Below are positions 5,815 through 57,726 of a DNA stretch of 64,000 bases, piece by piece (within the stretch, counting starts at the first letter, position 1; every line of letters starts with the position of its first letter). A program made the position numbers and the translations under genes. The notes beneath the pieces are model-generated. The model saw only the letters and a program-made list of their open reading frames with translations. It was not told the DNA's origin and ran no database searches. The stretch covers positions 1,728,001 to 1,792,000 of the forward strand of contig CAVTTL010000001.1 in NCBI GenBank assembly GCA_963737635.1, given 5' to 3'. This DNA comes from an uncultured Methanoregulaceae archaeon. Lineage in GTDB: Archaea > Halobacteriota > Methanomicrobia > Methanomicrobiales > Methanospirillaceae.

Positions 5815-6242
5815 CAGAACGCCTCACGTAAAATGACCTCCCTTGGATTGATCGCAGGTGAATAATCGCAAGCGTCGTATCAGGGAGTGGAAGATGGTTC
5901 GTGAATTATAACAGCAATAGGGTTAGTTTGATGTTCATGCCCCGTTATTTCATTCAGGTCGTTTACTAGCATTCTTCACCTATAGAATGTTTAAAGTTAT
6001 TGTATATAATCATTCTTAGTGTTTATTATACACAAGTATCGGAAATGTGTCCGCTACATAACCCTGGATGAAAAAATGAAAATCAACACTGTCAACATCC
6101 TCTTCATTAATATAGACACAGAAAACCCCATGGGGGCACAGTAAAACGTTTCCTAAAATGTTCCCTCCCAGAGGTACTAATATAATAGTTCAGTCACTGA
6201 AGCTTTTTCTGATGCCTATGCCAGAACAAGAGCAGATTTCTT

Positions 6243-7580: not shown

Positions 7581-7736
7581 GTGAGTTTGTCAGTTTCCTA
7601 TGAATGTGTATAATCAAATTAGCACTTATAATTATTGTTGATTATAAACATGAATGGTAAATAAGAGTAAAAACTATATAGAAAAACGATAAATGTAATT
7701 TTGTAAATTTTTGATCAGTGAAAAGAGGAAAAAAGT

Positions 7737-8423: not shown

Positions 8424-8585
8424 AAACAACATTTTCTACTATTAACCACTGGCAAGGTGGAGGGGGAGCGGGGACGAGTAAATCCGGTGTATTCTATCGG
8501 CCGGATTTCTCTTACGTTCCCCGATCATCGTATTTAACGAATTTCCACCTCGTACCGGAGAAAAAGATATAATGGAGATCCTATC

Positions 8586-34427: not shown

Positions 34428-35534
34428 TTAGTCTCTTTTCTTTGTGAGGGTAAAAATCAGGGCTGCTCCTATGCAGCCTCCGATTGCTGCCAGCGGAGAA
34501 AGCGCAAGACCGAACGGTGCCTTCATCATCTCGGGTGAGATCTCCGTCGGTTTGTTTTCTGATACGACAATGTCCATCGATACGGTCAGGTAACCGGGAG
34601 ATTTGATCTCAACCAGATGTGTCCCGGATGCAACGCTGTTCAGCGTTACCGGTGAAGTTCCTACCAGTACTGAATCGAGATAAACGGATGCGCCTGCCGG
34701 GGTTGATGAAACAACGAGTGTTCCCGAATTCGGGGAGGTGGCAGGTGTCACCTGCGGATTGCCTGACGCCCCGGTCATATTTGTCTGAGGAAGTGCGGCG
34801 GACGATGTATTGGTGGTTCCCAGTGGGGTCAGATCTGCATTGGAGGCAACGACCGTTAGTGTTTCTTTCAGGTTATTTGTCAATGAGGGGCTGCTGAAAA
34901 CAATGGTATAGGTACCTGGCTGCATATCAACATGGAACCCGTACTGGAAGTATCCCCCGGCACTCACCGGTGAGTTGAACGTATGCACCTTGTTCCCAGA
35001 AGCATCCAGCACATCGATCTCAATTGCATCTGCTGAAGTTTGCACTGTTCCCACCAGCTGAATATAATCATTGAGCACCGCCGGATTTGGGGATATTGTT
35101 GCATAAAATTCGGGTTGTCTCAGGGATATCGAAGCGGAAGAATTGATAAGCGGGTTACTGAGATCAAATGCCCTGAATGTATACACACCCGTATTCAGGT
35201 TTTCAGTCCCCTGCGCCAGGGAAGAATCCCAGAGAAATGTCCATGTTCCCGATGGATCCGTATACACGGGGTCCCCGGTTCCTGCTGTCCCCGTCAGGGT
35301 GGAGGGGGGAACCCCCGCAGAGGGGAGGCCTGGGCCGGTAACGGTGATTACAGTTGTATTACCTACGGTATTCTTCCCGTCAAATATGACACTGTCACCA
35401 ATGTAATGCTGCATGGCTCCTCGGTAAGAGATAGATACGGTTCCATCCTGGCCATGTACTGGTACGACGCATACCGCAACAAGGATCAAAAGAAGAAGTC
35501 CGTAAAATGATTCCGGAATCTTTTTAGAGCACAT
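34428..35534 (-). CDS. PEGA domain cell-surface protein
   Basis: Signal peptide; GTLVVSSTPAGASVYLD..GTSP; C-terminal TM plus KKR. Confidence 0.8.
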   Translation of the reverse strand: MCSKKIPESFYGLLLLILVAVCVVPVHGQDGTVSISYRGAMQHYIGDSVIFDGKNTVGNTTVITVTGPGLPSAGVPPSTLTGTAGTGDPVYTDPSGTWTFLWDSSLAQGTENLNTGVYTFRAFDLSNPLINSSASISLRQPEFYATISPNPAVLNDYIQLVGTVQTSADAIEIDVLDASGNKVHTFNSPVSAGGYFQYGFHVDMQPGTYTIVFSSPSLTNNLKETLTVVASNADLTPLGTTNTSSAALPQTNMTGASGNPQVTPATSPNSGTLVVSSTPAGASVYLDSVLVGTSPVTLNSVASGTHLVEIKSPGYLTVSMDIVVSENKPTEISPEMMKAPFGLALSPLAAIGGCIGAALIFTLTKKRD

Positions 35535-35706
35535 TTTTTTTCCTCACCTTTAAGAGAATATATTCTTGAGAGAATAAACGTTGTTGTTCTTTTTCTCACT
35601 TTTCACCCTGAATACCTCCCAAAGATCATCCAATTCGGTCAGGAAATGTCCCGATAACGAAACTATATGTATAGTTGCGCAGTAACCCATAACCAGAGGG
35701 ATAATC

Positions 35707-37738
35707 GTGACTGACGTCATCCAGGCAAAGATAACCGGTAATGAGCAGCTTAAAAATAAAATATCCCAAATATCGCGCGAATTTTCCTATGACGAGACCG
35801 CATATCATCTTCCGATCTCGTTTGCACTGACAGGAATTGCGGTACATGACAGGAACGCTGCTGCGGAAGTTTTTGCAAAAACCGGTAACAACCCGCTGGT
35901 TGCGTCTGAGTGCCTGCTTGCGGAAGCCACAGCTGCCGCAGGAAAGGAGCCTTCCCCTTACACGGGATTTATCAGTGACACGGTGATCCGGAAGCTTGGC
36001 TACTCCCTGGTGGATGGGAGCATTCTTGGCCTAGCCCTTATCGTTGGTACACCGAATAGTTCGGGGAGTGCAGCCGCAATCTGCCGTGAGCTTCAGGAAA
36101 AATACATGCTCACGTTCCTTGCCGGGGGCGTTATCCCGACCCTCTCTTCATCCGGCGTAAAACTTGGCCTGGATTACCGGCTCATCCCTCTGGGGTCCCA
36201 ACCTCTCCACAGTGTCTATTTTGTGGATATCATTGCACGGGTCGCAATGATGTTTGGAGGTGTCTCTCCGGGGGATACCGGACGCCTCCTTGCCTATGCA
36301 GCGGAACGTGCAAAAGCAATGGTAGTAGTCTTCCCCGGGCTATCTGATGAAGAAGTGGCCTTTGTGGACGGCATGCGTGTCCTTGGATTTCCGATCCTCA
36401 CGCTTGGCGGATATGAAGGCGGTGACTGGACACCGGCAACACCAGAAAATGTCGTGTGTACCGGGATGGAACTGAAGGGTATCCGGGTCACAGTGACTGC
36501 GATTCCTATTCCGATGGGCTGTTCTCCTGCGTTCGAAGGAAAAAGCATCAGGAAAGAGGAGATGCAGATCGAGTTTGGCGGGGGCCGATCACCCGCCTTT
36601 GAACTTTTAAGGATGAAAAATCCCGGAGAGATCGAGGATGGCAAGGTATCGGTTGTCGGGCCGGAGATCGATTCCATGAAGGAAGGCGGCGCATATCCTC
36701 TTGGTATTATTATCGATGTGGCGGGAAAGTCGATGAAGAAGGATTATGAGCCGGTACTCGAACGACGGATCCACAATTTTATCAATTATGGTGAAGGATC
36801 GTGGCACGTTGCCCAAAGGGATCTTATCTGGGTGCGGATATCCAAGGAAGCATTTGCAAAAGGGGTGAAAATCGAGCACCTGGGAAAACTCCTTGCAGGC
36901 AAGTTCCGGATGGATTTCCCCCAGCTTCTTGACGCGGTAGCCGTCACGCTCATCACAGACGAGGATAAAGTGCTTGCCGGAAAAAAAGAAGCGGAAAAAA
37001 TTTACGCCGAACGTGATGCCCGCATCAAAGGGATGCGTGACAACGAAGTTGGAACCTATTATTCCTGCACACTCTGTCAGACATTTGCCCCCAATCATGT
37101 CTGTATTATTACACCTGAGCGGCCGGCCCTCTGCGGGGCGATCAGACTGGCTTGACGGGAAGATTGCGTATGAAATGTCCCCCGCCGGCGCAAACCAACC
37201 CGTGGAGAAAGGGGCACTAATCAATGCCCAGAATGGCGAGTTCGAAGGGGTTAACCGGTTCGTCAAAAAAGCCAGCCACGGCGAAATCGAAAGGTGTTCG
37301 CTTTACAGCGTAATGGAATTCCCGATGACCTGCTGCGGGTGCTTCGAAGCCATAGCGCTGATGCTTCCTGAAGTCAACGGAATCATGGTGGTTAACCGGG
37401 AATACAAGGGCATGACACCGTCCGGCATGACATTCTCGACCCTTGCCGGAACCATTGGCGGGGGAGCCCAGACCCCGGGCTTTGCTGGCATCTCGAAGAA
37501 TTATATCCTTTCGGACCGGTTCCTCCAGGGCGAAGGGGGCATCGAACGCCTTGTCTGGATGCCTTCGCAATTAAAAGAGGAACTTAAACCCCGGCTCATC
37601 TCCCTTATGGCGGCAAAGGGACATCCCGATCTCTTTGATAAAATTGCGGATGAAACCACGGCTGAAACCATTGAGGATCTTACAGCTTTTCTCGAGCGTG
37701 TTGGTCACCCGGCGCTTACGATGAAACCCCTGATGTGA
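35707..37738 (+). CDS. acsB: Acetyl-CoA synthase, bacterial-type with N-terminal domain (frameshift at ~37146)
   Basis: A-cluster ligands CTLCQTFAPNHVC...LCGA and CGC; N-domain motifs TAY.LP, YTGFI.D, MMFGGV.PG, PAFEG.SIRK; about 676 aa when repaired. Confidence 0.92.
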
Positions 37739-37746
37739 GGTGTGAG

Positions 37747-38694
37747 ATGATACCTGAACCGAATTTTGGCTGGACGGGCACGGTAGGAGAAGTCATCCTT
37801 GGTGCAACCTGTTCTGATGGAGGGACGAGGTCACGCTCATACCGGATTGGCAGGGGAACCACACTCCCGTTCATGGAAAAAGAAAAAACATCGCCCTCGC
37901 CTCTCGTCACTTTCGATATTTGCGACGACTCCCGGTACTGGTCTCCTATAGTCAACGATTTCTGCGGAGATCTTGTCCACGATCCAAGTGCATGGGCGAA
38001 GATGGCAGAAACCTCCTACGAGGCAGATCTTATCCGTCTCTGCCTGACAAGTACCAAGCAGCGGGATTTCTCCAATATCGCCGCACTTGGGAAAACTACG
38101 GAATCTGTTCTGTCATCTACTACCCTGCCACTTATCATTGAAGGAAGCAACGAACCAAAGATTGACAGTGAAGTATTCCAGAAATGTGGCGAGGCTGGTC
38201 AGGGTGAACGCCTGCTTCTCGGGACCGCAGAAGCGGGACGGTACCGCAGTATCGCCGCTGCAGCCTTGGCGTACAACCACGCGATCATTGCCCAATCCCC
38301 CATCGATATCAACCTTGCAAAGCAGCTTAATATTCTTCTCAAGGAGATCGGGGTACCACGCGATCACATCGTTATCGATCCCTACACCGGTGCGCTTGGC
38401 TATGGTTTTGAGTATTCTTATTCTGCAATGGAGCGGATCCGGTTTTCTGCGCTCAAGGGCGACAGTGATCTCGCGATGCCGATGATCTGCGCTCCCTCGG
38501 ATTCTCTCACCATAAAGGAGGTACGTGAAGCAGATGTCGACATGAGGAATGCCATGGCTGTAGAATGGGAATTTGTGACCAGCCTTGCGGCCGCCATCGC
38601 CGGCGCTGAGATTGTCTGTGTCCGTCATCCAAGCACAGTAAAGCGACTCAAAACAGCTTTTGCGGATCTTAGTGCACGGCAGGGAGGCTCATAG
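37747..38694 (+). CDS. acsD: Corrinoid iron-sulfur protein small subunit (AcsD/CdhD)
   Basis: EV.LGAT..DGGTR, SPIDINLAKQLN, DP.TGALGYG.EYSYS.MERIR..AL.GD. Confidence 0.92.
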   Translation: MIPEPNFGWTGTVGEVILGATCSDGGTRSRSYRIGRGTTLPFMEKEKTSPSPLVTFDICDDSRYWSPIVNDFCGDLVHDPSAWAKMAETSYEADLIRLCLTSTKQRDFSNIAALGKTTESVLSSTTLPLIIEGSNEPKIDSEVFQKCGEAGQGERLLLGTAEAGRYRSIAAAALAYNHAIIAQSPIDINLAKQLNILLKEIGVPRDHIVIDPYTGALGYGFEYSYSAMERIRFSALKGDSDLAMPMICAPSDSLTIKEVREADVDMRNAMAVEWEFVTSLAAAIAGAEIVCVRHPSTVKRLKTAFADLSARQGGS

Positions 38695-38696
38695 GA

Positions 38697-40029
38697 ATGC
38701 CCCTCAAAGCCCTTGACATCTATAAACTCCTGCCAAAGAAGAACTGCAAGGAATGCGGTGATCCTACGTGCCTGACCTTTGCCATGAAACTTGCTGCCGG
38801 GAAAGCAGACCTAGATCTCTGCCCCTATCTTGATGAGAATGCAAAGTCGGTTCTTGGGGCTTCAACCCGGCCACCGATAAAACTCGTAAAACTCGGGGTT
38901 GGTGAACGTTCATTTGCCGTCGGTGAGGAGTTCGTGCTCTACCGCCACGACAAGACATTCTATCATCCACCGGGCATCATGTTTGTACTTTCCGATACGC
39001 AAACGGACGAGGAGATAGCGGCAGTGACCGCACGTGTACGTGATGAAACGCTGACACGGGTCGGGGCCGACCTGAAATTCAACGGGACAGCGATTATCAA
39101 TACAAGCGGGACGGTTGAAGCGTATGCAAGGGCGGTCACTGCAGTCGAAAAAACCGCGGGTCTCCCCGAAGTTCTGATCTCAGAGAACCCGGCAGCTCTT
39201 TCTGCTGCCCTCGTGCAGTGCGGGAGTTACCGGCCCCTGATCTGTGCAGCAACACCGGAAAATTACCGGGAGATGTGTGCGCTTGCCAAGCAGTACGGGT
39301 GCAGGCTTGTTGTCCGGGCTCAAACTCTCGATGGGCTCGCGGCGCTCACTAAGGATTGCGCTACCGAGGGGGTTTCCAATGTTGTGCTTGACCTTGCCCC
39401 GCAGACGTTGAGCGACTTTCTTTACCGATCGACGGAAATACGTCAGCTTGCCATTACCCGAGCGGCCCCGGATCTGGGTATCCGGTGTACCTGGATGCGA
39501 CGGCTTTTGTTGATGAAGATGCGGCAATTGCTCTGGGGATTGTCAAATATGCTTCTGTGATTGTAACTTCCCCGCTCTCTCCACCATCAGCAAAGGCTGC
39601 GCTCACCCTCCGCCAGAATATCTATACTGACCCCCAGAAACCCATCCAGATGAATCCCGGGCTCTACCGGGTCGTACTCCGGGAAAAGATGCACCGGTGC
39701 TTATGACGGTAAATTTTTCCCTCACCTACTTTACTCTTCAGGGATATCTGGAATCAACCCGTATTCCCTGCTTCATGTTAATTGTCGACACCGAGGGACT
39801 TTCGGTGCTAACCTCCGTCGCAGCAGGCAAGCTTAATGAGACGCTAGTGAGGGATGCGATAAAAAAATTCGGTGTTGAAAACGAAGTATCACACCGGAAA
39901 CTGATTATCCCCGGATATGCATCCCCCCTCTCGGGAAGAATCGAAGAGGCCACCGGCTGGAAAGTGCTAGTCGGGCCCCGGGATGCCGCCGAAATTGGCG
40001 AATTTCTCGTTCAGGAATGGAAACCCTAA
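38697..40029 (+). CDS. acsC: Corrinoid iron-sulfur protein large subunit (AcsC/CdhE; frameshifts at ~39480 and ~39676)
   Basis: IYKLLPK.NCKECG.PTC..FAM...CP [4Fe-4S] motif, RQNIYTDPQKP, NFSLTYF, GLSVLT..AAGK, VGPRDA. Confidence 0.92.
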
Positions 40030-41952
40030 ATGCGTACTGTTACTTTCTTTCCCAGCTACCGGAAGATCGATGCTCCCCGCGGGACGACTATCCTTGACGC
40101 CGCCCAGCGTGCCGGGATTAACATGAACGTCGTCTGCGGCGGCGTGGGCAAATGTGGAAAATGTATTGTTTATATCCAATCCGGTAAGACAGAATTCGAC
40201 CGGCAAAAGTTCGGGCGGTTCTTTACCGATGATGAACTGAAAAAGGGTGCCTGCCTTGCTTGCGTGACGACGATCCAGGGAGATCTTCAGGTCTTTATTC
40301 CTGAAAGCACGTTAATCCAGGAGCAAAAAATCCTCGTTGAAGGGGCAGATACGGAGATTGAATTCAACCCGTCCGTAAAAAAATACTATGTCGAACTTCA
40401 GCCGCCGACCCTTGCCGATCCATCCCCGGACCTTTCACGCCTGCTCTGGGGCATCCAGAAAAAAGGTGGGCCTGTTGCAGAGAAAATGTATGCACCGCTT
40501 GAGGTGATGCGGGAGATCCCTGCACTGCTCCGGCACAGTGACTGGAAAGTGACTGGAACAATTGCCCTTGTTCCCGGGGGATACCGGCTTATCGATCTCC
40601 AGGAAAATGATACCTCGCAAAGGCTCTACGGGGCAGCAGTTGATCTTGGCTCCACTACGGTCGTTGCGTACCTCTGGAATCTTATCACGGGAAAAGTGAC
40701 TGCGGTTGCTTCTAACTACAACCGGCAGATCAGCTGTGGGGAAGACATACTCGCCCGGGTCAATTATGCCCAGAAAAACGGGATCGCAAAACTCCAGACA
40801 CTTGCTGTAGAGAGCATTAACTCAGCGCTGACCTCGGCGTCCAACTCCGCCGGGATTGACCGGGAAGATATTTACGAAGTCGTGGTTGCAGGAAACACGG
40901 TAATGACCCACATGCTGCTTGGTATCGACCCGGCTTATATCATCAAGGAACCCTATGTCCCGGTGGTGCAACGGGCACTTTCGGTCGCTGCCGCAAGGAT
41001 TGGGATCACTTGTAACGACAATTGCGGGCTCTTTGCTTTCCCGGCAGTCAGTGATTTTATTGGCGGTGATATCATTGCCGACATTCTTGCTTGTGGCATG
41101 GGCGAAAAGGATGAGATCTCCCTCCTTGTCGATATTGGTACTAATTTCGAAGTTGTTCTTGGTAACCGGGAATGGATGTTTTCATGTGCAGGGGCAGCGG
41201 GTCCGGCGCTTGAAGGTGGCGAGGTACTCTTCGGTATGCGTGCAAATCCCGGTGCTATCGAGAAGATAACTATCGACCCAACAACGCTTGAGCCGGTATT
41301 TTCCACCATCAATGGGATCAAACCCCGGGGCATTACCGGTTCTGGGCTGATTGATATTCTTGCCGAACTGCTCTCTACCGGAGTCATTGACCGTACCGGG
41401 CGGATTAACACTGAGTGCAACAATCCCCGGATCCGCGTCGGCGCACATTTCCCGGAGTACGTCATTGCGTGGGCACGCGAGACCGATATCGGCAAGGATA
41501 TTGTGATTACGGAAAATGACATCAAGAACCTCATTATGAGCAAGGCTTCCATCCATGCTGCCTGCGTGACGCTCATGAAAGAGGCAGCAGTTACACGGTT
41601 CGACATTGCCACCATTTACTTCGCCGGGGCATTTGGTAACTACATCAACAAAAAGAACGCGACGATTGTAGGCCTGATCCCAGAGATCGATTTCGAACGG
41701 ATAAAGAACATCGGAAATGGAGCCGTAGTAGGTGCAAATCTTGCGCTCATCAATCGCAGACAGAGAAAACTACTCGATGGCATCGCAGGCAGGATCGCTT
41801 ATATTGAGCTCAACGCAGAACCCTCTTTCATGGATGAGTACACCTCTAGCGCGTTTCTCCCGCATACCGATCTCTCACTTTTCCCCCGGGTCCAGGCCCT
41901 TCTCGATTCCCTGCGCGAGAAAAAAGGAGGGTATCCCGAATGTCAAAGATGA
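40030..41952 (+). CDS. acsV: ASKHA/DUF4445 reductive activator of corrinoid proteins (RACo/AcsV)
   Basis: N-terminal [2Fe-2S] CGG.GKCGKC...LAC; DLGSTT, GNTVM, DIGTN.E, AGPA.EG, GSG, AGAFG. Confidence 0.9.
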   Translation: MRTVTFFPSYRKIDAPRGTTILDAAQRAGINMNVVCGGVGKCGKCIVYIQSGKTEFDRQKFGRFFTDDELKKGACLACVTTIQGDLQVFIPESTLIQEQKILVEGADTEIEFNPSVKKYYVELQPPTLADPSPDLSRLLWGIQKKGGPVAEKMYAPLEVMREIPALLRHSDWKVTGTIALVPGGYRLIDLQENDTSQRLYGAAVDLGSTTVVAYLWNLITGKVTAVASNYNRQISCGEDILARVNYAQKNGIAKLQTLAVESINSALTSASNSAGIDREDIYEVVVAGNTVMTHMLLGIDPAYIIKEPYVPVVQRALSVAAARIGITCNDNCGLFAFPAVSDFIGGDIIADILACGMGEKDEISLLVDIGTNFEVVLGNREWMFSCAGAAGPALEGGEVLFGMRANPGAIEKITIDPTTLEPVFSTINGIKPRGITGSGLIDILAELLSTGVIDRTGRINTECNNPRIRVGAHFPEYVIAWARETDIGKDIVITENDIKNLIMSKASIHAACVTLMKEAAVTRFDIATIYFAGAFGNYINKKNATIVGLIPEIDFERIKNIGNGAVVGANLALINRRQRKLLDGIAGRIAYIELNAEPSFMDEYTSSAFLPHTDLSLFPRVQALLDSLREKKGGYPECQR

Positions 41953-42979
41953 TCCCATCCCCGTATTCACGTGCGACTGGTATAGGCGCCCTTCCCCACA
42001 CCGACCCTGTACTCGCGTGCGACGATGTCCTCGATGTGTTCCCTGAATTCCCTTATGCACCCACGCTCCCCGACCGTGGACTTCTGGAAAGCATCGTTTT
42101 CAACGATTCAGCGCAGCTCCCGGGGCGGCTCATCCGTGATGACAGGTTACTCTACGATAGCACCCGGGATAATACCTCTGCGATGGAACAGGTGTACCTG
42201 GATTTTGTCGAGGAAAATTTTTCACCCTATAACCTTGATAAGGAACACGCATCTGCATTTGCAGAGATGATGACCCGTCATTTTCCTAAAGCAAAGATCC
42301 TCAAGTGCCAGGTCACTGGACCGGTTACCTTCGGTATGCAGGTTGTGGATGCGGACAAGAGGCCCATCTATTACGACTCTCAACTTGCTGATGTCCTTTC
42401 GAAAATGATTGCACTCAAGGCCCGGTGGTGCGAAAACGAGATGCAGATACAGACTGGAATCAAAGAGACCCTTGTAGTTCTCAACGAACCCTATTTTGCT
42501 TCGCTGGGATCCTCAGTCGTGCCCCTTGACCGGGGAGCTGTGAAGGCGGGCTGGCAGGATATTGCATCCCTCGTCCGGGGCGGCCTTGGCGTGCACTGTT
42601 GTTCGAACACGGACTGGGAATTTGTTATCAGTCTCGACCCTTCGGTCATCTCCCTTGACGCCTATGCAACAGCGACAGAATTCCTTCTCTACGCCGATGC
42701 GATTGCGGCTTACCTAGAACGGGGCGGGGTCATAGCTTGGGGAATTGTCCCTGCAGAATACAAGCTCTTTGCAGCAGAGACGGTTGACTCGCTCTACGCA
42801 CGGTACCGTGCGATACGAACCCAGCTGACAAAACGTATCCCGGAAGATCTTTTCGATGCCCAGTCGCTCATTACCCCCAGCTGCGGATCCGGTTTGCCGA
42901 CCGGAACGGCGCTGGTGAGATCCAGAGTGCCGCCGCGGAGATTTCCCGGAGGATCCGGGCAGAGGCAGATATTTCCTGA
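41940..42979 (+). CDS. Folate-independent (core-MetE/MesB-like) methionine synthase (frameshift at ~42887)
   Basis: TGIGALPHTDP..AC, K.QVTGPVTFG, NEP, Zn ligands GVHCC, SLD, ITPSCG; single catalytic barrel; repaired C-terminus ends at TGA 42979. Confidence 0.75.
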
Positions 42980-43002
42980 ACGTGAGAATGTTACTTGTTA
43001 CT

Positions 43003-43769
43003 ATGACACCGCGCCCGTTTACCATTGCCCTTTCCGGAAAAGGAGGGACCGGCAAAACTACCATAAGTTCCCTCCTTGTCCGGGCTTTTATCGATGCAGG
43101 TGAAAGCCCGGTTCTCGCCGTTGATGCTGACCCTAATGCAAACTTCCACGAGGCCCTTGGTGTAGAAGTGAAAGAGACGCTGGGCAGCATGCGTGAAGAG
43201 GCCTTTACCAGAAATATTCCGCCTGGCATGAACCGGCACGATTACGTACGGTACCGTTCCGGCAGGCCCTTGTGGAATCTAATGGCTTTGATCTGGTCGC
43301 GATGGGCCGGCCCGAAGGCACCGGCTGTTACTGTTTTGCAAACGATCTCCTTACAGAATGCATGCAGCAACTCGAGCGTGAATACCGTTTTCTTGTGATC
43401 GATACAGAGGCCGGCATGGAACACATCAGCCGGGGCACAATCGGAAAACCTGATGTGTTATTGATCGTAAGCGATCCCGGTGCGAGGGGACTACGGACGA
43501 TTGCGCGGATACGGGAAATCGCTATCCAGCTCGGGTTTGAGCCGTCACGAATCCATATCGTGTTCAACCGGTATAAATCTGGCGCAGCACCGGTGGATAT
43601 AGGAAACGAACTCCCGATCGCAGTCATCCCGGAAGACCCTGCAGTTGAGGCAGCTGATCTTGCGGCAACTCCGGTATCACAGATCCCGGAGTCCAGCCCG
43701 GCCCGCCGTGAAATCCGTGCCCTCGCAGAAAAAATGATGAAAATGGCGCATGATCGGCTGGAACAATAA
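43003..43769 (+). CDS. cooC: CooC/AcsF-type nickel-insertion ATPase (frameshift at ~43257)
   Basis: GKGGTGKTT, DADPN, MGRPEG.GCYC, DTEAGMEH..RG. Confidence 0.88.
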
Positions 43770-46301: not shown

Positions 46302-49300
46302 TTACTGTGCCTTTTCGTAACAGATCGTCGCTTCCTCGTGCTTGCCGAGTTTATCCAGCGTTGCGCCGATGTCGTTCCAGACTTCCCTTCGGGAGGGATC
46401 TATCTCGATTGCACGTTTGAAGGAACTAAGAGCTTCCTGGTATTTCTCCAGTTCCTGCAGGGCCCGACCTTGATGAATCCACGCGTCGACAAAATCCGGC
46501 TGGATGGAGATCATTGCGCGGAAGGATTCCGCTGCTTCCTCGTATTGCCCGAGTGCCTCGAAGGCACTTCCCCGGGTAAAGTATGCGATCGAGAATGAGG
46601 GATCAATAGCGAGAGCCCGATCATAAGATTCGATTGCGGTTTTGTGATCCTGCATGCCCGGCAAAGGTCATACCCCGGCGGGTCCAACCGACAGCGTTCT
46701 CCGGGTCCCGCCTGAGTCCTTCGTCATACGCATCGCGTGCCTCGGAGTATTTCCCGAGATCATAGAGGACGTTTCCCTTGCCAAACCAGGCGGCCGCAAG
46801 GCCCGGGTCCTTTTCAAGAGCTTTCTCGAATGCCTCGAGCGCATCACGGTACATACCAAGCTCGGCGAGGGAAGTCCCCTTGTGGGAAAACGCATCGGCG
46901 CCATAGGTATCCAGCTCCAGCGCGCGATCATAGGACTTAATCGCCTCGCGATATTGTTCGATTGCGGCGTAGGCAAGACCACGATCCCGGTAGAGTTCAG
47001 CAGAATCCGGTTTTATAGCAATGGCGCGGTCGTACTCGGTGATGGCCGCATCGAAACTGCCTTCGTCATACAGCGTCCTCGCCTTCCAGTAATGTGCCTG
47101 ATAGCACGATGGGTTTACCTCAAGAGCACGATCGAACGCGCGGATCGCCCCGTCAGGGTTCTGAAGCGCGATATAGGTCCGCCCTTTCTGGAAGATTGCA
47201 TCTGCATATCCGGGGCTCGCCGACAATGTCTGGTCATAGACTGCAAGGGCTTCCCGGTACTTCCCCAAGGAGAAAAGCGCTCTTCCTTTCTCGTAAAGAG
47301 CTTCGGGATAATCGCTTTTTATCCTGAGGGCGGCATCAAACGATGCCACCGCCTCTTCATATTGTCCACGGTGTGCAAGTGCAATCCCTTTGTAATGGTG
47401 CGCTTCCGTGAACTGCCGGTTAATGGCGAGCGCGCGGTTGAACGCGTCGACAGCTTCATCGTCCTGACTTCGTTTCAGGTGGGCACGGCCTTTGTAATAG
47501 AACGCTTCTGCTGCTTCCGGCTGGAGAGTAAGCACCTTTTCAAATGCGGCAAGCGCTTCCCCTGTCCGTTCCAAATGGATAAGTGCACGTCCCTGATTGA
47601 GGAACGCGGGTGCATAGGCTGGATTAAGGGCAAGGGCCCGGTTGTAACAATCCAGAGCCTCTTCGTACCGGTCCAGATTGGCCTCAGCAATCCCGCGGTA
47701 GAGCCAGGCTTCAGGATAATCTGCCTGTTCAGTGAGTGCACGATCGAATGCAGTGATCGCCTCGTGGTACATCGCAACTCCGCACAACGCCCGTCCTTTT
47801 GCATAGAATGCCCGGGCACACGTCGGCTGCTGGATAAGCGCTGTATCAAAGTTCTTGATCGCTTCCTGGTAACGGCCCAGTGCAGAAAGCGAGAGCCCAT
47901 ACTGATAATATGCACGTCCATCCTTCTTATCGAGGGCGATAGCCTTAGTGTAACACGAAATGGCGTCTTTGTGGCGCTCAAGTGCTGCAAGGGCCATGCC
48001 TTTACCGGTCCAAATATACGCGTAGTTCGGATGGAGCCGGAGAGCCTGGTCAAAAGCGGTAGATGCATCTTCGGGTCGCTGAAGTCGCAAGAGGGCCACA
48101 CCCTTATGGTACAGCGCTTCATCATGTTTGGGACACGAAGCGAGGGTTTGGTCATATGCAGTGACCGCCTCACTGTACATCGCCAGTTCAAAGAGCGTTC
48201 TTCCCTTGTAGTAGTACGCCTCGGAAAACTCAGGGTTTATTTCGAATGCCCGATCAAAAGCTGAGACCGCTTCATCAAAGGTGTTGAGCGCAAGAAGAGC
48301 CCGGCCCATAAGGTACCATGCATCTGCGTTTTTCGCATCGATCCTCAGTATCTTTTTATATGATTCGATAGCGACATCGTACCTGCCGAGGTCGAAGAGC
48401 ACCATCCCCCGATGGAGCCACCCCGGGATCGACCCGGGATCGGTATCGATGACACGATCGAACGCCTCAATCGCAGCATCGAGTTTGCCGGTGGCTGCAA
48501 GAGAGATTCCCTTGCGGTAGAATGCTTCAGTGTTACCGGCATCGAGATCAAGATCCTTGTCAAAGGAGACGACCGCCTCGTCATGCCTTCCTAGTTCTGC
48601 AAGGGCAATACCTTTATAGAAATAAACTCCGGCGTAATTTTTATCGATGAGAAGGGTCTTGTCAAAGGTTTTGACCGCCTCGCGGAACATCCCGAGTGCA
48701 GTGAGCGCCTTGCCTTTCTCGAAGAGCGCGTCGGAAAAGACTGGATCGATCTCCAGAGCTGCATCAAATGCTTTCACGGCATCTTCAGCACGTCCGCTTT
48801 GTATGAGTGCTACGCCCTGATAATAATGGGCATGTGCGTCCGATGGTCGCAGGGCAAGGGCAGCGGAATAACAGACAATTGCTTCACTGTACTGTCCAAG
48901 CTTGTCAAGCGAGCGGGCTTTCTGGAACTGTGCATCGAAATGTTCCGGTACAAGGTTGAGTACCTGATCGAATGCTACAATTGCGTCTTCGAAGTGCTTG
49001 AGCCGGGCAAGAACGCAGCCCTGTTCGTACCATGCATCAGCATTTTCCGGAGTGTACACTAAAAGACGCTCAAATGATTCCGCTGCCTCAGCGTACCGTT
49101 CCAAGGCAGCAAGAGATGCGGCACGGAAGTACAGGGCGCCGGCATTTTTCGGATCACCTGCGAGGGCAACATCTAGCGCCGCACACGCATCCTCATATTT
49201 CGCCGCGTAGAAGAGTGCTCTTCCGCGCTCGAAGCTTGCTACCGGGTCAGATGGTGCAAGTTCAAGCACCCTATCGAAGGAATTGATGGCTTCCTCGTTT

Positions 49301-52300
49301 TTATTAAGTGCAGCCAACGCCCGTCCACGTTCAAGATACGAATCGGGCTCATCAGGCCGGAGTGCAATCACGCGATCGAATGCGGCGACAGCATCATCAT
49401 AATGGCCAAAATGTATCAGTGCATCACCTTTTTTGAACCAGATCTCAGGATTATCCGGATTGAGGGCCAAAGCCGCATCGAAGGCCATATCCGCATCATC
49501 GTACCGTTCAAGCGCAAGAAGAGATAACCCGCGAAGGTAGGCTGGTTCGTAATTATCGGTAATCTGGGTAAATGCTAACCGGAAGATTTCCTGTGCTTCG
49601 TCATGGCGCCCGAGCGATGCCAGAGCCTTTGCCTTCTCGAACAGAACCTCGCCGTTGCCTGGTTCCCTGCCAAGCGCGATATCGAAAAGGTGAATGGCCT
49701 CCTCATACTGCCCGAGACGGGCCCATGCCTTTCCATCGACAAACAGCAGGTTGATGTCATGTGGATCGATCTGGCGGGCCTTCTCAAACGCTTGGACGGC
49801 ATCATCATCCTTGCCTTGGCTTTCGGAAGCAAGGCCACGATGATACCAAGCCCCAAAGTGATCTGGTTTGGATGAAAGCATGTGATCGTATGCTACAATT
49901 GCATCGGCAAACCGGCCGAGACGTTCCTCCGCAAAGCCGAGATAATAGGCAGCATCCCCGAACGTAGCGTCCAGCTCCAATACCCGGCCGAACGAACGAA
50001 CCGCCATCTCGTCACTGCCTAATTCGAGGAGTGCGCGGCCATTTTCGTAATGTGCCTCTGGTTTCTTATCGTCCCTGGTTATTGCCTCAGAGAATGTATT
50101 GACCGCATCCTCGTACCGGCCAAGACGTGCAAGCGCCACACCTTTTTCGTAGAATACAGGATACTGATCGGCGTTAATTCCCACAGCATGATCAAAAGCG
50201 TCTACAGCATTGTCATACTGCCGGAGCCGGGAATGCGCACACCCTTTGGCAAACCACGCATCATAGTTCGCCGGATCAAGCCTGATGGCGGCATCGAACG
50301 TAGTAATTGCATCCCCATATTTTTTCAGATTTGCAAGAGCAAGCCCCTTATTGAGAAACGCAAAAACGCTGGATGCATTAATAGCAATCGCTGCATCGAA
50401 CGCCGCAATAGCCTCCTTGTTTTTGGAAAGCCGAGCCAATGCCAGGCCTTTTTCGAAATATGCCATAGAAAAATTCGGGTCAATGGAAGAGGCCATTTCG
50501 AATGCCTCGATTGCCTGCCGGTCCCGGCCAAGACGGGCAAGTGCGCTTCCTTTGTCGTAATACGCGCTCGCATATTTCGGGTTGATGGAAAGCGCCCGGT
50601 CATAGGAAGGGATCGCCTCTTCAAATCTCCCCAAGCCTGCAAGTGCAACGGCCCGATCATACCAGCCGTTCGCGTTGTCAGGCCGGAGTTCGAGAGCTTT
50701 TGTAAGAGATTCGATGGCCGAACGCAAATCCCCGTCTGAGAGCAGGGCACTCCCTTTCCTGAACCAGGCTGCCGAGCAGCCGGGATCTGCGGTAATGACC
50801 CGGTCGAAACACCGGATCGCCTCCGGATACTTTCGTAATCCCGCAAAAGCCTTTCCTTTCCGGTACCAGGCCATACTGTTATCCGGCGTCAGCGAAAGCG
50901 CGCGATCAAATGATTCAAGCGCCTCCTCTAGTCGTTCCTGCTCCAAGAAGATGGTTCCCTTGAGGAGCCAGACGTCAGGTATATTGTTCTCAAGGGAAAG
51001 TGACTCCTCAAGCACAGTAAGAGCTTCATCGGGCCGGGCAAGTTTTGTTAGCATCCTTCCCTTATGGTACAGAACTTCCGCATTCCGCGATTCAAGTTCA
51101 AGCAATTTGTTAAATGCAGCCAATGCCTGCGTATACCGGCTTAGCCCTGCATAAGCAAGACCCGAATGGAACAGGGCATCCTTTAATGAAGGATCGTGCT
51201 CGAGCGCATGTTTGAAGGATCGGATCGCATTTTCATATTTTCCAATGGCAAAAAGGGCCAGTCCCTTCTGATAATGTGCATAGGCATACTCAGGGACGTA
51301 CTGGATAGCCTGATCATAAGCCTCTATCGCGCCGGCGTAATTCTTCAGTCTGGCCAGCGTCAGACCTTTTTTATACGCGGCATCAGGATAAGAAGGATCA
51401 AATCCGAGAACAAGGTCGTACGTTCGGAGAGCTTCTTCGTCATTTCCTATAAGGGCAAGTGCCTCCGCTTTATAGAACACAGCATCTACCGATTTCGGGT
51501 CAAGCAAAAGGGCCTGGTCAAAAGCCGAAACGGCTCCTGTTCCGTCTTTTTCGAAGAGCAAAACCTCACCTTTTGCAAGCCAGATGAACGAGTTTTCAGG
51601 ATCGAGGCCCAGCGCCCGGTTAAGCGCTTCTAGCGCTTTTTTATAATCCTTGGTCTCAGTTAGGGATCGCCCCCGGTAATATTGGATAACTGAGGTTTCC
51701 GGACCAAGGGTAAGGGCTAGATCGAAGATCCCTACCGCATCCTGGTACCGCTCCAACATGAAGAGAGTAAGCGCCTTTCTGAACGCGTAATCCTGCATTG
51801 CAGGAGCGATCTCCAATGCACGCTCAAATGCCGGGAGCGACGTTCCAAACTCTTCCTGTTCGAAAAGGACCAATCCCTTCTGGTACCATGCTGACGCACA
51901 ATCGCTGTCAAGAGCGATAGCCTGTTCAAACGAATCTTGTGCTTCATTATGTAGCGTAAGGTGGGAATAGGCGATTCCCTTGTAATACCAGGCAGCAGCA
52001 GTTTTCTCTTCAACGGCGAGAAGTTTATCAAATATCGCAATGCCCTCTTCCCACCGTTCGTTATGAAGGAGGGATTTGCCCCGGTACAGCAGGGTAAAGG
52101 GGTCCTTAGGCTGGCGCTTCTGTGCCTTTGCAAATGATTCAGCCGATTCCTTGAAACGGCTGAGCCGGTAAAGGGCATATCCTTTACAGGCATGCGTCCG
52201 GGCATCCCCCCCATCATATTCAAGGGCGCGGTCAAGCGCGATTACGGCATCCTCATAACGGGAAAGATGGACGAGATCCGTGCCCATGATAAAATGGGCA

Positions 52301-55300
52301 ATTACATTCTCAGGATCGAGAGCTATGACGCGATCAAAGAGTTCCACGGCTTCTGTATAGCGCCGGAGTTCCGAAAGCGATTGTCCTTTTTTGACCATGG
52401 CACCGATGTGGTTGTTGTCCAGTTCGATAGTGCGGTTAAAGGAAGTGATCGCCTCTTCAAACTTTTTGAGGGCGAAGTACGCGCATCCTTTCTCGTACAG
52501 GATGCCGGCGTCTTCTTGTCCCAAACGGAGGTACCGGTCAAAAATTTCGATTGCCTCCTCAAACTTTTCCAAGCGGGTGAGAACCATCCCTGCTTGTTCC
52601 AGCGCATCGGCATTCTCGGGGCTGAGCTTAAGGGTCTTTGCAAATGCTACAATCGCTTTTTCATCGCGATGAAGTCCGACGTATGTAAGGCCGAGGTGAT
52701 AGTAATTATCAGTATTTTCTGGGTCTGCAGTGCACGCGTCTTCATAGGCAGCTGCTGCTTCCCGGAACCGCTTGAGTGCTTCAAGAGCGTGGCCTTTCGC
52801 GGAGAGCAAGGCGGCATCCGAGGGTGTGATCACAAGGGCATTATCGAATGCAGAAACTGCCTCCTCGTTTTTACCTGCTGCGGCAAGAGCGAGCCCTTTG
52901 TGGAAGTAAGCAGGCGGATAATTTGTTACCAGACCCAGAACATGGTCAAATGCTCCAACTGCTTCGTCATTGCGATGGAGCTCGATCAAGTCAAGACCCA
53001 TATCGAACCATGCATGAGCATTTGTACTGTCAAGTTCAAGCGAACGGGAAAGGACCGGCACTGCGTCAGCATACCGCCGCAAAGCAGAGAGAGCTACACC
53101 TTTGTAGTACCAAGCCTCGGCAAAATCCGGCTGGATACCGATTGCCATATCTGAAGATTGGACAGATTCCTCATCCTGCCCGAGACTGTGCAATGATATA
53201 GCCTTATTGAGCGCTGATTCAGCACTCTCCGGATCATATTCAAGTGCGCGGTCGTACGCATCGATCGAGTCGTGGTACAGGCCTTGGGCGGCAAGCGCTA
53301 CACCCTTGAGATGGTACGCCGGCGCATATCTGGGGAGAAGAAGGAGTGTCTGGTCAAAGGTCTGGACAGACTTCATGGTAGCGTTCCAGTTTTAAGAGTG
53401 AGGCTCCACGGTGGAAGAGGGCATGGTCAAGGTGTGGATCACTTTCAAGTGCCTGGTCAAATGAAAGAATCGCTTCCTCATACCTCCCCACTCGTAGAGA
53501 GCAAGGCCCTTGTGGTAGTGGGCATCTGGGTAGCTGGACTCCACTTCCAGTGCTTTATCATAGGCATCGATGGCATCGGTGTAATTGCCGGTGTCAAAAA
53601 GTGCACGGCCCTTTTGGTACCAGGCATGGAAGTTATGGGGGTTCTCTGCGATAGTCCGGTCAAAGTCCTTGATAGCTTCATCGAATCTGCCCAAGTTATA
53701 GAGCGAGATGCCCTTACGCATCCGGGCCTCAGAATACCGCGGTTTGAGTGCGAGCGTTTTTTCAAAAGCGGTGACTGCCTCTTGGTGCCGTCCAAGACCA
53801 TCAAACGCCCGACCTTTCTGGAAAGAGACCAGAGCATTCTCCGGGTCATAGATCAATGCCCGGTCGAATGCATCGAGCGCCTCTTGGTATTTACCAAGCT
53901 TGGAGAGCGCAACACCTTTGAAATAGTATCCTGGGGAATTGCTTGTATCCTTTTCCAGATTCTTTCCAAATTCATCGATGGCTTCTTGGAATCGCCCGAG
54001 CTTGGAGAGCGCAACACCCTTCGAATAAAAAACCTCGGTATACGCTGGTTCTTTCTCAAGTGCCCGGTCGAACGCGGTAATCGCATCCTGGTACTTTCCC
54101 AAGTCAAGAAGCATCTTCCCCTTATTGTACCATCCCGGGGCAAACGATTCTTTGATGTTGAGTGAGGCTTCAAAGGCAGCAAGTGCTTCTTTTGGCCGAC
54201 CGGAGTTCGCAAGTGCAAGACCCATATGGTAATAGGCATCGCTGTTGTTTGCATCTATCTCGATAAGAACCTCGAAGACCTGAAGGGCTTCTTCCATCTG
54301 GTTGATCTTCTCGAGGGCAAGACCTTTGTACAGGAATGCAACCGTGCTCCGCTGGTTTAAGGAAATTGCGTTATTAAATGCATCGATGGCATCTTGGTAT
54401 CGTCCCAAATCGAAGAGGGCCCGGCCATCCTTGATCCAGCCTTCTTCCTGATCGGGGTCCAGCCGGAGAGCCTCCGCATATGCTTCTACGGCATCCTCAG
54501 TCCGGCCCAGCACATTAAGGGCTTCGCCTTTTCGCATCCAGATCTCGCCAAGCCCTGCATCGATATCGAGAGCCTTGTTGAATGCCGTAACAGCATCCGG
54601 GATCCTTCCAAGATCTGAAAGCAGGATACCTTTTTTTGCCCACGCATCAGCATTGTCCGGGTCGATTTCAAGGACCCGGGTATATGCCGCCAGAGCATCC
54701 TGTTTTTTTACCAGATGGTCGAGAGCGGTGCCCTTCTGTATCCAGACATCCACAAGGTTCGGGTTTAACGAGAGGATACGATCGAAGGTTTCCACTGCTT
54801 CAACGTATCGCTGGAGTACCATGAGGGATTCGCCGCGGCAGAGGAGTGCCTCCATCTGCGATGGATTTGCTGCGAGACTGCGGTTCAGTGCCGCGACTGC
54901 CTCATCGTGGCGCCCGAGCCGGGCAAGGGCAATTCCCTGATACACGAAAGCATCTGTTAACGAAGGATTCATCGAGATCGATGTATTAAGTGTGGCCAGA
55001 GCCTCCTCGTACCGGTGGGACTGCAGGTAGGCAATACCTTGGTAATAGTATGCGGAAGCGTTTGCGGTGTCAAGGGCAAGGGCATCCGAAAATGCCCGGA
55101 TGGCGTCGTCATACCGGTCGCACTCAATAAGTGAGATTCCCATATAATGATGGGCAAGAGCATTTGAGGGGTTGTATTCAAGAGATCGCTCGAAAGCCAC
55201 AATCGCTTCATCAAACCGTTTCCTTCCCGCGTAGGCAATACCAAGATAATAGAGAGCCTGCGGATTATCTGGTTCGAGAGTGAGCAATCGCTCAAATGTT

Positions 55301-57726
55301 TTTATCGCATCTTCATACCGTTCCTTCTGGGCAAGTGCGATTCCCTTCCGGTACAGGATCTTTGGATCGTCGGGCTCAATCTCGAGCGCCTGATCGTACG
55401 AAATGATCGCTTCCAGCTGCTTGCCAAGACTGGCAAGGGCATTGCCTTTCTCAAAGAATGCCCGGGCACACCGCCGGTTGATTTCCAGTACCCGCTCAAA
55501 TGCCCGCACAGCTTCATCGAAACGGGAGAGCTCCGCAAAGGAAACACCTTTATAATACCATGCCCGTTCATCCCGGGGAGCGATTTCAAGGGCGCGATTG
55601 AGGGTCGTAATAGCGTCTTCGTATCTGCCAAGGGCAACCAAGGCCGTTCCTTTGCCGACCAGGGCCTGCGTATTCTTCGGATTAAGACCGATGACCCGGT
55701 CGAAGGCCTCGATTGCTTTGATGGTTTCTCCGAGCTGCGCATAACAGATCCCCGCGGAAAGCCAGGAGTCGGCAAGGCCGGGATCCTGCTCGACTGCGGC
55801 CTCAAAGGCTGTAACTGCATCCTTCCACCGATTCAGTTGCATGAGTGCAAGCCCTTTCTCATTAAGGGCAGACGTGTTCTGGGGGGAAAGTGCAAGAACT
55901 GCATCATAGGCTGCAGCTGCATCGGTGTACCTCCCTTGGTTAAAAAGCATTACTCCCCGGTGGTACAGCGCAAGCGTATGAGTTGGGTCTATCGCCACTG
56001 CATGGTCAAATGCCAGGAGCGCTTCATCAAGTAGGTCAAGCTTTGCAAGGGCAATGCCCTTGTTGTAATAGGCATTGACATAGTTGGGATAGATCCCGAT
56101 TGCCTGATCGAAAGCTTCGATCGCAATCTGGACCTGCTCCGCTTTTAACAGGGCAGTGCCCTTGTCATAGTAGGCCTGCGCATTGTCAGGTCGAAGAGCT
56201 ATACTTTTATTGAACGCGTCCAATGCATCGTCAAGCCTGCCCATTCTGACGAGAAGCTGACCTTTCTGGTGGTAAGCCTGGGAATTGCCGGGGTTTTCGT
56301 TTAAGGACCGATCGAATTCCTGAAGCGCCTCCTCGCTGTTTCCGAGCTTCGCTAAGGCAAACCCCTTGTGATAAATAACATCCGAATAATCGGGCCTGAT
56401 CTTAAGTGCGCGATCGTAGGCAGCGACAGCATCGCCAAATTTCCCAAGGCTTGCAGAGGCAAGGCCGATTTGATAGGCGGCCGAAGCGCATCCAGGATCA
56501 ATTGTCAGGGTATGTTCAAAGGCTCCAATTGCATCATCCTGCCGGCCAAGGCGGGAAAGAACGATCCCCCGGAAGTAAGACGCACCTACATGGTCGCTCT
56601 GCTGGGAAAGGATCTGGTCAAACGCACTGAGTGCTTCATCGTATCTGCTCAGGTGGATGCAGGAGACTCCCCGGTTGTATAAGGCATCAGCATTTTCCGG
56701 TTCAGCGGCTAGTGCCCGGTCAAAATCTACTACTGCCTCACGGAAACGCCCGAGATGCTGGTTGGCTTTGCCCCGGAAAAAATAGATCTTGTTGTTTTGC
56801 GGGGTGAGTTCCGCCGCTTTATCCAAGGCATATGCGGCATCCTCGTACTGTTCCATCTCAAAGAGGGAAAATCCCTTGTAGAGCCATGCATCTGCGACGA
56901 GAGGGTTTTGTAAGATGGCCTGGTCAAACGATTCCGCAGCATCGGCGTACTTTTTGGTCCGGTACTGGGCAATTCCACGGATTACCCAGATATCCGCATG
57001 ATCAGGTTCAGATGCGAGGAATGTCCCTGCTGCTTCCGCTGCTTCAGCATACCGTTCCTGTTTTGCAAGAATGAATGAGCGGTAATACCAGACCCAGGCA
57101 TCAGATGGATCGAGAGCATAAGCTTTTTCAAAGGCATCAAGGGCTTCCTCATACCTCCCTGTATCATAAAGGGAGATCCCCATGTTGTAAAATGCCTTTG
57201 CATAACCGGGGATAATCTCGATCGCCTTTCCGTAGGCAACAATGGCTTCGTCATGTCTTCCCAGATCCGCAAGGGCAATGGCCTTGTTATAGTAGACTTT
57301 CGCGTGGCTAGGATCGATTGCAAGTGCATGATCATAGGCCGTTATCGCCTCCTGATACCGACCTAGTTCATAAAGGGCGATTCCCTTAAGGATCCATGCT
57401 TCCGCATTGTCGTACTTGAGAGCGATAAGACGCTCGCAGGCGTCGAGCGCTTCCTTATTCCTGCCGATTTGTGCAAGGGTCGCGGCCTTGTTATACCATG
57501 CATTGATGTCGGAAGAATCAATTGCAAGTGCGTTATCATAGGATTCGATTGCTGCCTCGTACCGGCCGAGATCGTATAAAGCGATGCCTTTGAAATAATG
57601 AGCCTTGGGTAAGCGGGGAAAGAGTGTAAGTGCCCGATCAAACATGACCACGGCTTCCTGATGCCTGCCGAGATCATAGAGTTCGATACCCTGCCGCATC
57701 AGTGCTTCAGCATCACTTCTGCTCAT
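46302..57726 (-). CDS. Giant tetratricopeptide-repeat protein, about 3,800 aa (three apparent indels split it into three ORFs)
   Basis: Continuous 34-aa TPR periodicity (AWY.KG.AL..LGRY.EA..AFD.AL..DP); register continues across breaks at ~53490, ~53371 and ~46660. Confidence 0.85.

Follow-up and report, generated by a model that had tools for sequence, protein, structure and literature searches.

Gene content of the operon

The window analysed here is a stretch of 64,000 nucleotides from contig CAVTTL010000001.1 (positions 1,728,001 to 1,792,000 of the forward strand) of the genome of an uncultured Methanoregulaceae archaeon (assembly GCA_963737635.1). We label this genome G000 and a genome of the same genus G005; other G and L numbers denote compared genomes and loci. 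Between positions 35707 and 43769 the window carries six + strand genes in the order acsB–acsD–acsC–RACo–mesB-like–cooC. They encode an acetyl-CoA synthase (ACS) of bacterial type, the two subunits of the corrinoid iron–sulfur protein (CoFeSP), a reductive activator of the corrinoid protein (RACo), a homologue of the MetE core and a P-loop ATPase. The genes are separated by gaps, or share overlaps, of 0–13 bases. The listing of open reading frames (ORFs) and the family scans give the same genes, order and borders as an earlier note on this DNA. The features of the operon are as follows.

35656..35669, + strand: upstream element AACGAAACTATATG, 38–51 bases before the start of acsB
35707..37738, + strand: acsB, ACS built on the bacterial plan, N-terminal domain included (PF03598, PF19436 and NF040764, in two pieces)
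37735..38694, + strand: acsD, small subunit of CoFeSP, unbroken in the window (PF03599; NF003376 at 371.9 bits, cut-off 280)
38697..40029, + strand: acsC, large CoFeSP subunit with corrinoid and [4Fe-4S] (PF04060, PF03599 and NF003195, in pieces)
40030..41952, + strand: RACo, reductive activator that uses ATP and acts on the corrinoid protein, unbroken in the window (PF14574, PF17651, PF17650 and PF00111)
41940..42979, + strand: mesB-like gene, core-MetE homologue, putative zinc methylcorrinoid:thiol methyltransferase (346 residues when whole)
42982..43769, + strand: cooC/acsF-like P-loop ATPase, exact start uncertain (PF01656 in the N-terminal piece, MinD-type models in the C-terminal piece)

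The earlier note had stated that the operon holds neither a CO dehydrogenase (CODH) nor the pterin methyltransferase AcsE. The family scans agree: no Prismane/CODH gene and no pterin-methyltransferase gene was found inside the six-gene cluster, PF00809 giving a sub-threshold echo within acsD only. The mesB-like gene is the sole methyltransferase gene of the operon.

Reading frames of the six genes

Four of the six genes (acsB, acsC, the mesB-like gene and cooC) are broken in the window by five one-base indels. A four-genome DNA alignment places these as an extra A at 37146 and as a base missing after each of 39475, 39673, 42884 and ∼43255. Relative to the G005 orthologues, acsB and cooC are read in two frames each, acsC in three and the gene at 41940 in two; the 387-residue ORF that starts at 41940 carries a junk tail because of the base missing after 42884. 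Four public DNA runs, each from a different study and one of them possibly the source sample, supplied contigs that were aligned to the stretch, and the correcting indel is present in 16 of 16 run-by-site observations, that is at every covered site (37146 in two runs, 39475 and 39673 in four each, 42884 and 43255 in three each). The contigs omit base 37146, insert a G at both acsC sites (all four runs) and insert a G in cooC. No RNA run carrying this DNA is on the list of public runs. The whole mesB-like protein of 346 residues (P0002) is also on record from three other contigs; it is identical over the unbroken part, and its tail is found in the shifted frame of the window. Since the public runs correct every covered site and an intact P0002 is on record, the five indels are assembly errors and the genes are whole in the organism.

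For a genome-wide rate, 20 kb of G005 was sampled at each of twenty places, which gave 259 ORFs of at least 200 residues; a clear orthologue in G000 exists for 160, and the other 99, which were spurious or lacked an orthologue at 60% identity and 70% cover, were excluded. A frame change was found in 22 of the 160 sampled genes, with 24 shifts in 182 kb. The cluster, with five frameshifts in 8.06 kb, lies at ∼4.7 times this rate, the background being a count that misses shifts near gene ends. The completeness of G000 is 90%, compared with 96–99% in its genus relatives, and GATC lies within a few bases of three of the five indel sites.

Within acsC the four runs all read AG rather than CA at 39137–39138 and C rather than T at 39481; these are either further consensus errors or fixed strain differences. 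Elsewhere in G000 (G000:C1:1994318-1996116 and L126 6442-7686), the RACo paralogue that neighbours the cdh operon is in three frame pieces, and cdhE covers only positions 1–383 of the 450 in its model; both breaks are probably assembly errors of the same type. Other 'pseudogenes' or 'frameshifts' claimed for G000 call for a check against reads first.

Acetyl-CoA synthase and its partner proteins

The gene identities proposed in the earlier note are upheld by comparison with Pfam, NCBIfam and PDB sequences. The intact AcsB orthologue of G005 scores 910.6 bits against NF040764 (cut-off 800; model positions 14–705), and the two acsB pieces of the window score 568 and 324 bits. Against the PDB, AcsB matches bacterial ACS with 668 bits (from residue 77; the Carboxydothermus enzyme) and, in a match that starts at residue 28, with 574 bits. 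In the C-terminal part shared by both types it scores 503 bits to bacterial ACS versus 391 bits to the β subunit of the archaeal complex named acetyl-CoA decarbonylase/synthase (ACDS), so that 'bacterial-type', as the module had been described, is apt for AcsB. Its N-terminus is ∼45 residues shorter than those of the CODH-bound bacterial enzymes. The motifs C-x2-C-x8-C-x9-C and Cys-Gly-Cys, which we take to be those of the A-cluster, are both found in the G005 orthologue, and the first is also found in the window. The operon AcsB has 45% identity over the shared part to CdhC, the corresponding protein of G000's own archaeal complex (see below). A phylogeny of AcsB had been suggested in the earlier note; a tree of 17 rows sets the operon AcsBs apart from four Chloroflexota AcsBs and places CdhC on a very long branch, but the deep forks do not resolve and the tree names no donor lineage.

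The AcsC orthologue scores 557 bits against NF003195 (cut-off 306), and its N-terminal Fe–S domain (PF04060) is present in a window piece. RACo has all four of its Pfam domains, covering the 2Fe-2S ferredoxin, linker, middle and ASKHA ATPase parts, above their cut-offs and scores 564.9 bits against the AcsV model NF040756, which is below the cut-off of 800. The CooC-like orthologue has the P-loop GKGGTGKTT and a C-Y-C (CxC) motif; among PDB sequences it matches CooC1 (PDB entry 3kje) with 65.7 bits (E = 4.9e-17) and MinD with 43.9 bits, and no curated CooC/AcsF model matches it at the model's cut-off. The ATPase is probably a nickel-insertion factor.

The mesB-like protein

The protein encoded at 41940 has no Pfam or NCBIfam match even at E = 10, and phmmer gave no hit among PDB sequences with an E-value below 0.29. 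The Protein Atlas gave leads only: clusters that were named methionine synthase automatically, with PF01717 in 26% of the members of one cluster. The AlphaFold2 model (pLDDT 96.5, pTM 0.93) was compared with the PDB using Foldseek. The top matches, with E-values between 1e-7 and 1e-6, are the MetE structures of T. maritima, Candida and Arabidopsis, followed by a Methanosarcina MtaA-like methyltransferase (PDB entry 4ay7; E = 5e-6) and uroporphyrinogen decarboxylases. The predicted fold is thus that of the MetE C-terminal barrel without a folate-binding domain.

An alignment of 74 sequences shows no variation at H219, C221 and D240, and only one sequence departs from C315; the resulting HCDC zinc site occurs in all 39 Methanomicrobiales sequences that are complete at the scored positions. 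Its spacing is 2/19/75, compared with 2/19/76 for DET0516. Statements attributed here and below to PMC7857596, PMC7005905, PMC11494345 and the M. formicica genome note rest on portions of those sources. The zinc ligands of MesB from D. mccartyi are residues 214/216/235/311, with Asp replacing Glu (PMC7857596). P0002 aligns over its full length with a Dehalococcoidia protein listed by NCBI as methionine synthase (228 bits, 36% identity; a proxy and not DET0516 itself) and scores 190–209 bits against representatives at 33–39% identity; membership of the MesB family was set at at least 130 bits to DET0516 by phmmer (Price 2021, PMC7857596). The fold and the zinc site both speak for the MesB-like character assigned in the earlier note.

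The homocysteine site is less conventional. At the positions of the MetE homocysteine ligands Ser433 and Asp599 the window protein has A17 and N182, so that it departs from two of the three positions that Price (2021) lists for homocysteine binding; the MetE numbering was set by motif position (GS-x-P and DEP) together with the published residue numbers rather than by a ligand-bound structure. Among the 39 complete Methanomicrobiales sequences the residue pair is distributed as follows.

Ala/Asn: 23
Gly/Asn: 7
Ser/Asn: 2
Ala/Ser: 2
Ser/Ser: 1
Ser/Asp: 4

The four Ser/Asp sequences are of the Methanospirillum type plus one other. The same pair is retained in 36 of 38 bacterial sequences and in the single Methanomassiliicoccales locus.

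Conservation and distribution

In four relatives the six genes are intact and colinear, with lengths of 676–683 residues for AcsB, 317–321 for AcsD, 444–488 for AcsC, 633–642 for RACo, 344–351 for the mesB-like protein and 228–274 for CooC. Eighty loci were gathered with the mesB-like family alignment, 41 of which are titled as Methanomicrobiales/Methanobacteriota lineages and come from Methanoregula, Methanolinea, Methanosphaerula, Methanoculleus, Methanospirillum and Methanofollis. The six genes occur in the same order in 33 of these 41; seven of the other eight loci are short or partial, and at L082 acsC was not detected before RACo. The bacterial mesB loci (n = 38, mostly Chloroflexota) have no acs gene within 9 kb in 36 cases, and one has RACo and cooC only. 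The Methanomassiliicoccales locus has acs genes near its mesB-like gene.

Several Methanoregula loci (L049 5939-6952 and L054 3835-4953; also L052 and L086) have an extra 1.3–3.4 kb separating acsC from RACo. At one locus this insert codes for a DsbA/GILT-like protein of thioredoxin fold, at another for a protein that belongs to no known family; family comparison gave no hint of function for the insert proteins, and the window has no such insert.

Across 151 genomes sampled evenly from the order Methanomicrobiales, in which kin are not independent and drafts may miss genes, the mesB-like gene is found in 57, spread over five of six families; these 57 are the carriers referred to below. Loci from an entry titled Methanosphaerula subterraneus and from a Methanofollis metagenome-assembled genome (L066, L081) carry the acsB–acsD–acsC operon. 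Methanosphaerula palustris and Methanofollis liminatans are listed without cdhCDE in the part of PMC11494345 available; pathway tables may handle the module inconsistently.

CO dehydrogenase and methionine synthase elsewhere

The description of the system as CODH-less holds for the operon but not for the genome. G000 has a complete archaeal cdhABCDE (G000:C1, ∼1996400–2003200), ∼235 kb away, with its own CdhC and accompanied by two CooC-like genes and the RACo paralogue. Its cdhA (1124.9 bits to TIGR00314) is the sole Prismane-family gene of the genome. The whole-genome search proposed in the earlier note turned up cdhA, counter to the picture drawn there, and likewise a MesA methionine synthase (PF01717; 393.7 bits to NF002119, cut-off 258). 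No CooS-type CODH (TIGR01702) was found in G000, and a single PF00809 match above the cut-off (G000:C1:604975) is distant from the cluster. As G000 has MesA, it does not depend on the module for methionine. Two genes for AMP-forming acetyl-CoA synthetase are also present above the cut-off.

Within the order, cdhA is present in 26 of the 57 carriers and in nine of the 94 non-carriers, following family lines; the remaining 31 carriers lack it. CooS (E = 1e-10 or better) occurs in 31 of 57 carriers and 56 of 94 non-carriers and is thus not enriched in carriers. Neither gene was found in eight of the 57 carriers, although absence from a draft is not proof. These eight have completeness values of 98% (G042), 98% (G030), 99% (G064, closed), 96% (G130), 99% (G153), 93% (G163), 89% (G183) and 56% (G146). 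A Prismane-family search of five of the eight gave nothing in three; the other two have only a Prismane-family protein of 526–550 residues that neither CODH model matched and which is taken to be a hybrid-cluster protein. Because a closed genome carries the module without a CODH and CooS is not enriched in carriers, the distribution argues that the module works without CODH. Its presence in genomes without any detected CODH also fits the cleavage direction that the earlier note had proposed.

CooS (TIGR01702) is above the cut-off in 78 of the 151 genomes, including families without any cdhA. At L128 (G025:C6:121000-140999; 4923-9187) the operon is followed by genes for a 361-residue protein of no known family, a CooS-type CODH (582 bits to PF03063) and another CooC-like ATPase; G025 is the only genome with an adjacent CooS among the carriers that have CooS on the contig of the operon.

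Proposed mechanism

From the gene identities, their intactness, the conserved gene order and the independence from CODH genes, all observed here, we infer the direction of the ACS reaction, a direct transfer from CoFeSP to the mesB-like enzyme, the methyl acceptor and the release of CO. The reading that we favour, with a probability of about 0.45, is that the operon encodes a self-contained module for methyl transfer, in which CODH-independent cleavage of acetyl-CoA loads CoFeSP with a methyl group, and that the mesB-like enzyme uses it to methylate homocysteine, as an accessory beside MesA. Acetate would be converted to acetyl-CoA by an AMP-forming acetyl-CoA synthetase. By analogy with the Dehalococcoides model, AcsB would split acetyl-CoA into CoA, CO and a methyl group on CoFeSP, while RACo would hold the CoFeSP cobalt as Co(I) in an ATP-driven manner and the CooC/AcsF-like ATPase would insert nickel. 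The mesB-like enzyme would then pass the methyl group from CoFeSP to a thiol; the acceptor is most probably homocysteine, giving methionine. In G000 the CO may be oxidised by the archaeal CdhA rather than lost. For the carriers that have no source of CO, ACS can act only in the direction of cleavage.

Labelling of D. mccartyi was reportedly carried out in a 2014 study by Zhuang. In that organism acetate C2 labels the methyl group of methionine, and MesB uses methylcobalamin (PMC7857596, PMC7005905). The Dehalococcoides model has acetyl-CoA cleaved with release of CO (Deobald 2020, PMC7005905), and the methyl donor of MesB is probably CoFeSP (Price 2021, PMC7857596).

Several observations weigh against this reading. 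At least one of the two homocysteine-ligand positions is changed in 35 of the 39 complete Methanomicrobiales sequences, and both are changed in 32. MesA is present in 147 of the 151 genomes of the order and in 122 of 122 high-quality ones; the mesB-like protein is therefore never the sole methionine synthase in Methanomicrobiales, and no carrier requires the module to make methionine. Methyl-tetrahydromethanopterin (methyl-H4MPT) is abundant in methanogens. G000 has CdhA, and some CODH, cdhA or CooS, is found in 49 of the 57 carriers, for which a synthetic direction with CO is conceivable; in G025 cooS–cooC lies 2 kb downstream of the operon on the same strand.

Alternative explanations

The strongest competitor, which we nevertheless hold to be unlikely, keeps the same machinery and direction but has the mesB-like enzyme methylate, in place of homocysteine, a different thiol such as coenzyme M or another small thiol; methyl groups derived from acetate would then go elsewhere than into methionine. 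In synthases of the MetE family the carboxylate and the amino group of homocysteine are held by a Ser and an Asp, where the window protein has A17 and N182, and this double replacement is the rule in Methanomicrobiales, whereas the pair is kept in bacteria and in Methanomassiliicoccales, where MesB is the only methionine synthase (Price 2021, PMC7857596). The same paper allows that MesB-like proteins found beside other synthases might differ in function, and MesA is such a synthase here. The Foldseek match to the MtaA-like 4ay7 points the same way. Set against this, the best fold matches are MetE structures, an Asn could still bond the amino group and the backbone could still hold the carboxylate, and Ser and Asp are retained in the Methanospirillum-type members of the same operon. 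In a 2024 labelling study of M. hungatei JF-1, which is not established as a carrier, the label passed from 13C-methyl acetate to methylmercury was negligible and resembled that of methane (PMC11494345).

More doubtful still is operation in the synthetic direction, in which the mesB-like enzyme would take a methyl group from a methylated thiol (methionine or compounds of the methanethiol type) or from another donor and pass it to CoFeSP, and AcsB would join it with CO and CoA to form acetyl-CoA. The chemistry of ACS is reversible, and the best PDB relative of AcsB is the monomeric bacterial ACS 1ru3, which presumably has stand-alone activity. CdhA or CooS could supply CO in the 49 carriers mentioned above, and the cooS–cooC pair near the operon of G025 would suit such a role. 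On the other side stand the eight carriers in which no CODH was found, the failure of CooS to be enriched in carriers and the lack of a partner for a CO tunnel among the products of the operon. The transfer of a methyl group from a thioether to Co(I) is, moreover, uphill for MetE-type enzymes.

It is improbable that CdhA (in relatives, alternatively CooS) and the bacterial-type AcsB together make up a second, true CODH/ACS for autotrophic synthesis of acetyl-CoA, to which the mesB-like enzyme is a side branch. G000 does have a CdhA, cdhA is commoner in carriers than in non-carriers (along family lines) and AcsB has retained its N-terminal domain. The CdhA, however, is encoded in its own cdhABCDE 235 kb away together with its own CdhC, more than half of the carriers (31 of 57) have no cdhA, the operon has no AcsE-like methyl-H4MPT:CoFeSP methyltransferase, and the N-terminus of AcsB falls short of those of the CODH-bound enzymes by the ∼45 residues noted above.

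We give marginally less credence again to the idea that the Methanoregulaceae/Methanoculleus-type enzyme, having lost both residues that hold homocysteine while methionine is made by MesA, was recruited to methylate coenzyme M specifically, the operon forming a shunt from the acetyl-CoA methyl group to methyl-coenzyme M that is independent of H4MPT and Mtr. If true, there would be cryptic acetate cleavage in methanogens that are counted as strictly hydrogenotrophic.

Finally, decay of the cluster into a pseudogene relic in G000, to which its ∼4.7-fold excess of frameshifts might point, is contradicted by the public-run contigs and by the genome-wide rate of split genes, as well as by the intact identical protein, the lower completeness of G000 and the GATC sites, and can be dismissed.

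Relation to known systems

Like MesB of D. mccartyi, the mesB-like protein is a short, MetE-like zinc methyltransferase (as predicted here) with no folate domain and nearly the same HCDC spacing. D. mccartyi also has AcsB, AcsC, AcsD and CooC without AcsE or a partner CODH, and there too the methyl group is proposed to be donated by CoFeSP and to originate from acetyl-CoA cleavage. The two systems differ in that mesB of D. mccartyi lies with genes of the S-adenosylmethionine (SAM) cycle (PMC7005905), whereas here the genes form one operon that includes RACo; the host here is a methanogen with MesA and a full archaeal CODH/ACS, and the Ser/Asp homocysteine ligands are changed.

The concept had been called partly described in the earlier note; mesB in an operon with acsC and acsD in methanogens has already been reported (Price 2021, PMC7857596, section 8 and the legend of Fig. 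3B), with the same arrangement and in the same order of methanogens. Beyond the text of that paper, as far as it is available, go the bacterial-type AcsB, the carriers without CODH, the presence of MesA alongside and the changed homocysteine ligands. The accessible part of the M. formicica genome note has the ACDS complex only. A literature search that left subscription journals largely outside found no biochemical test in a methanogen, of which the earlier note had likewise known none, and no description of this second ACS.

With the acs operon of acetogens (Moorella, Carboxydothermus and Clostridium) the operon has in common AcsB (the 574–668 bits given above), AcsD, AcsC, RACo and a CooC-type ATPase; it differs in having no AcsA CODH and no AcsE, and a MesB-type thiol methyltransferase occupies the methyltransferase slot. 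The CdhABCDE of G000 shares the A-cluster motifs with it and draws on the same family of corrinoid proteins, but its CdhC lacks the N-terminal domain, its CdhD is longer (408 residues) and it includes CdhA and CdhB. MtaA and MtbA, of the uroporphyrinogen decarboxylase (UROD) fold, also transfer methyl groups from a corrinoid to a thiol in a zinc-dependent manner, as is predicted here, and have a related barrel fold; unlike them, the mesB-like protein is matched better by MetE structures and has no match to the UROD family at the sequence level.

Flanking genes and upstream element

The flanks of the operon are unrelated to it, as had been noted earlier: a PEGA-domain protein and a metallo-β-lactamase/ACT protein are encoded upstream, and the downstream genes code for a Band 7 protein, a HAD hydrolase and a pyruvoyl arginine decarboxylase. 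Just beyond these downstream neighbours, two very long ORFs (2251 and 1444 residues) lie on the minus strand at 46621–53376 and 53392–57726.

The upstream element AACGAAACTATATG occurs once in the window and was matched in none of 100 shuffles; its core is kept in a five-genome alignment. It is likely to be the promoter of the operon, of the BRE/TATA type (B recognition element and TATA box). An Rfam search of the region upstream of acsB (35300–35900, E up to 1) gave no match to a riboswitch or any other RNA.

Implications

The operon is real, the concept and the linkage to mesB are published, and within its genus the instance described here is nothing unusual. Less familiar are the carriers free of CODH, the presence of MesA alongside the module throughout the order and the replaced homocysteine ligands. 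To our knowledge, a direct hand-over of the methyl group from CoFeSP to MesB, as proposed in 2020–2021, has never been demonstrated, and this operon, being compact and supplied with an activator of its own, offers suitable components for studying it.

Automatic annotation labels the genes of the operon as subunits of the acetyl-CoA decarbonylase/synthase complex; genomes that have only the module could therefore be mis-scored as having the carbon-fixing branch of the Wood–Ljungdahl pathway. Methanoregulaceae and their relatives are major producers of methane in peat and wetlands, and many of them need acetate. If the module cleaves acetyl-CoA in these organisms, then the methyl groups of methionine, SAM and the many cofactors that are methylated by SAM would derive in part from acetate C2, and CO would be given off by the carriers without CODH; isotope flux studies would have to reckon with both effects.

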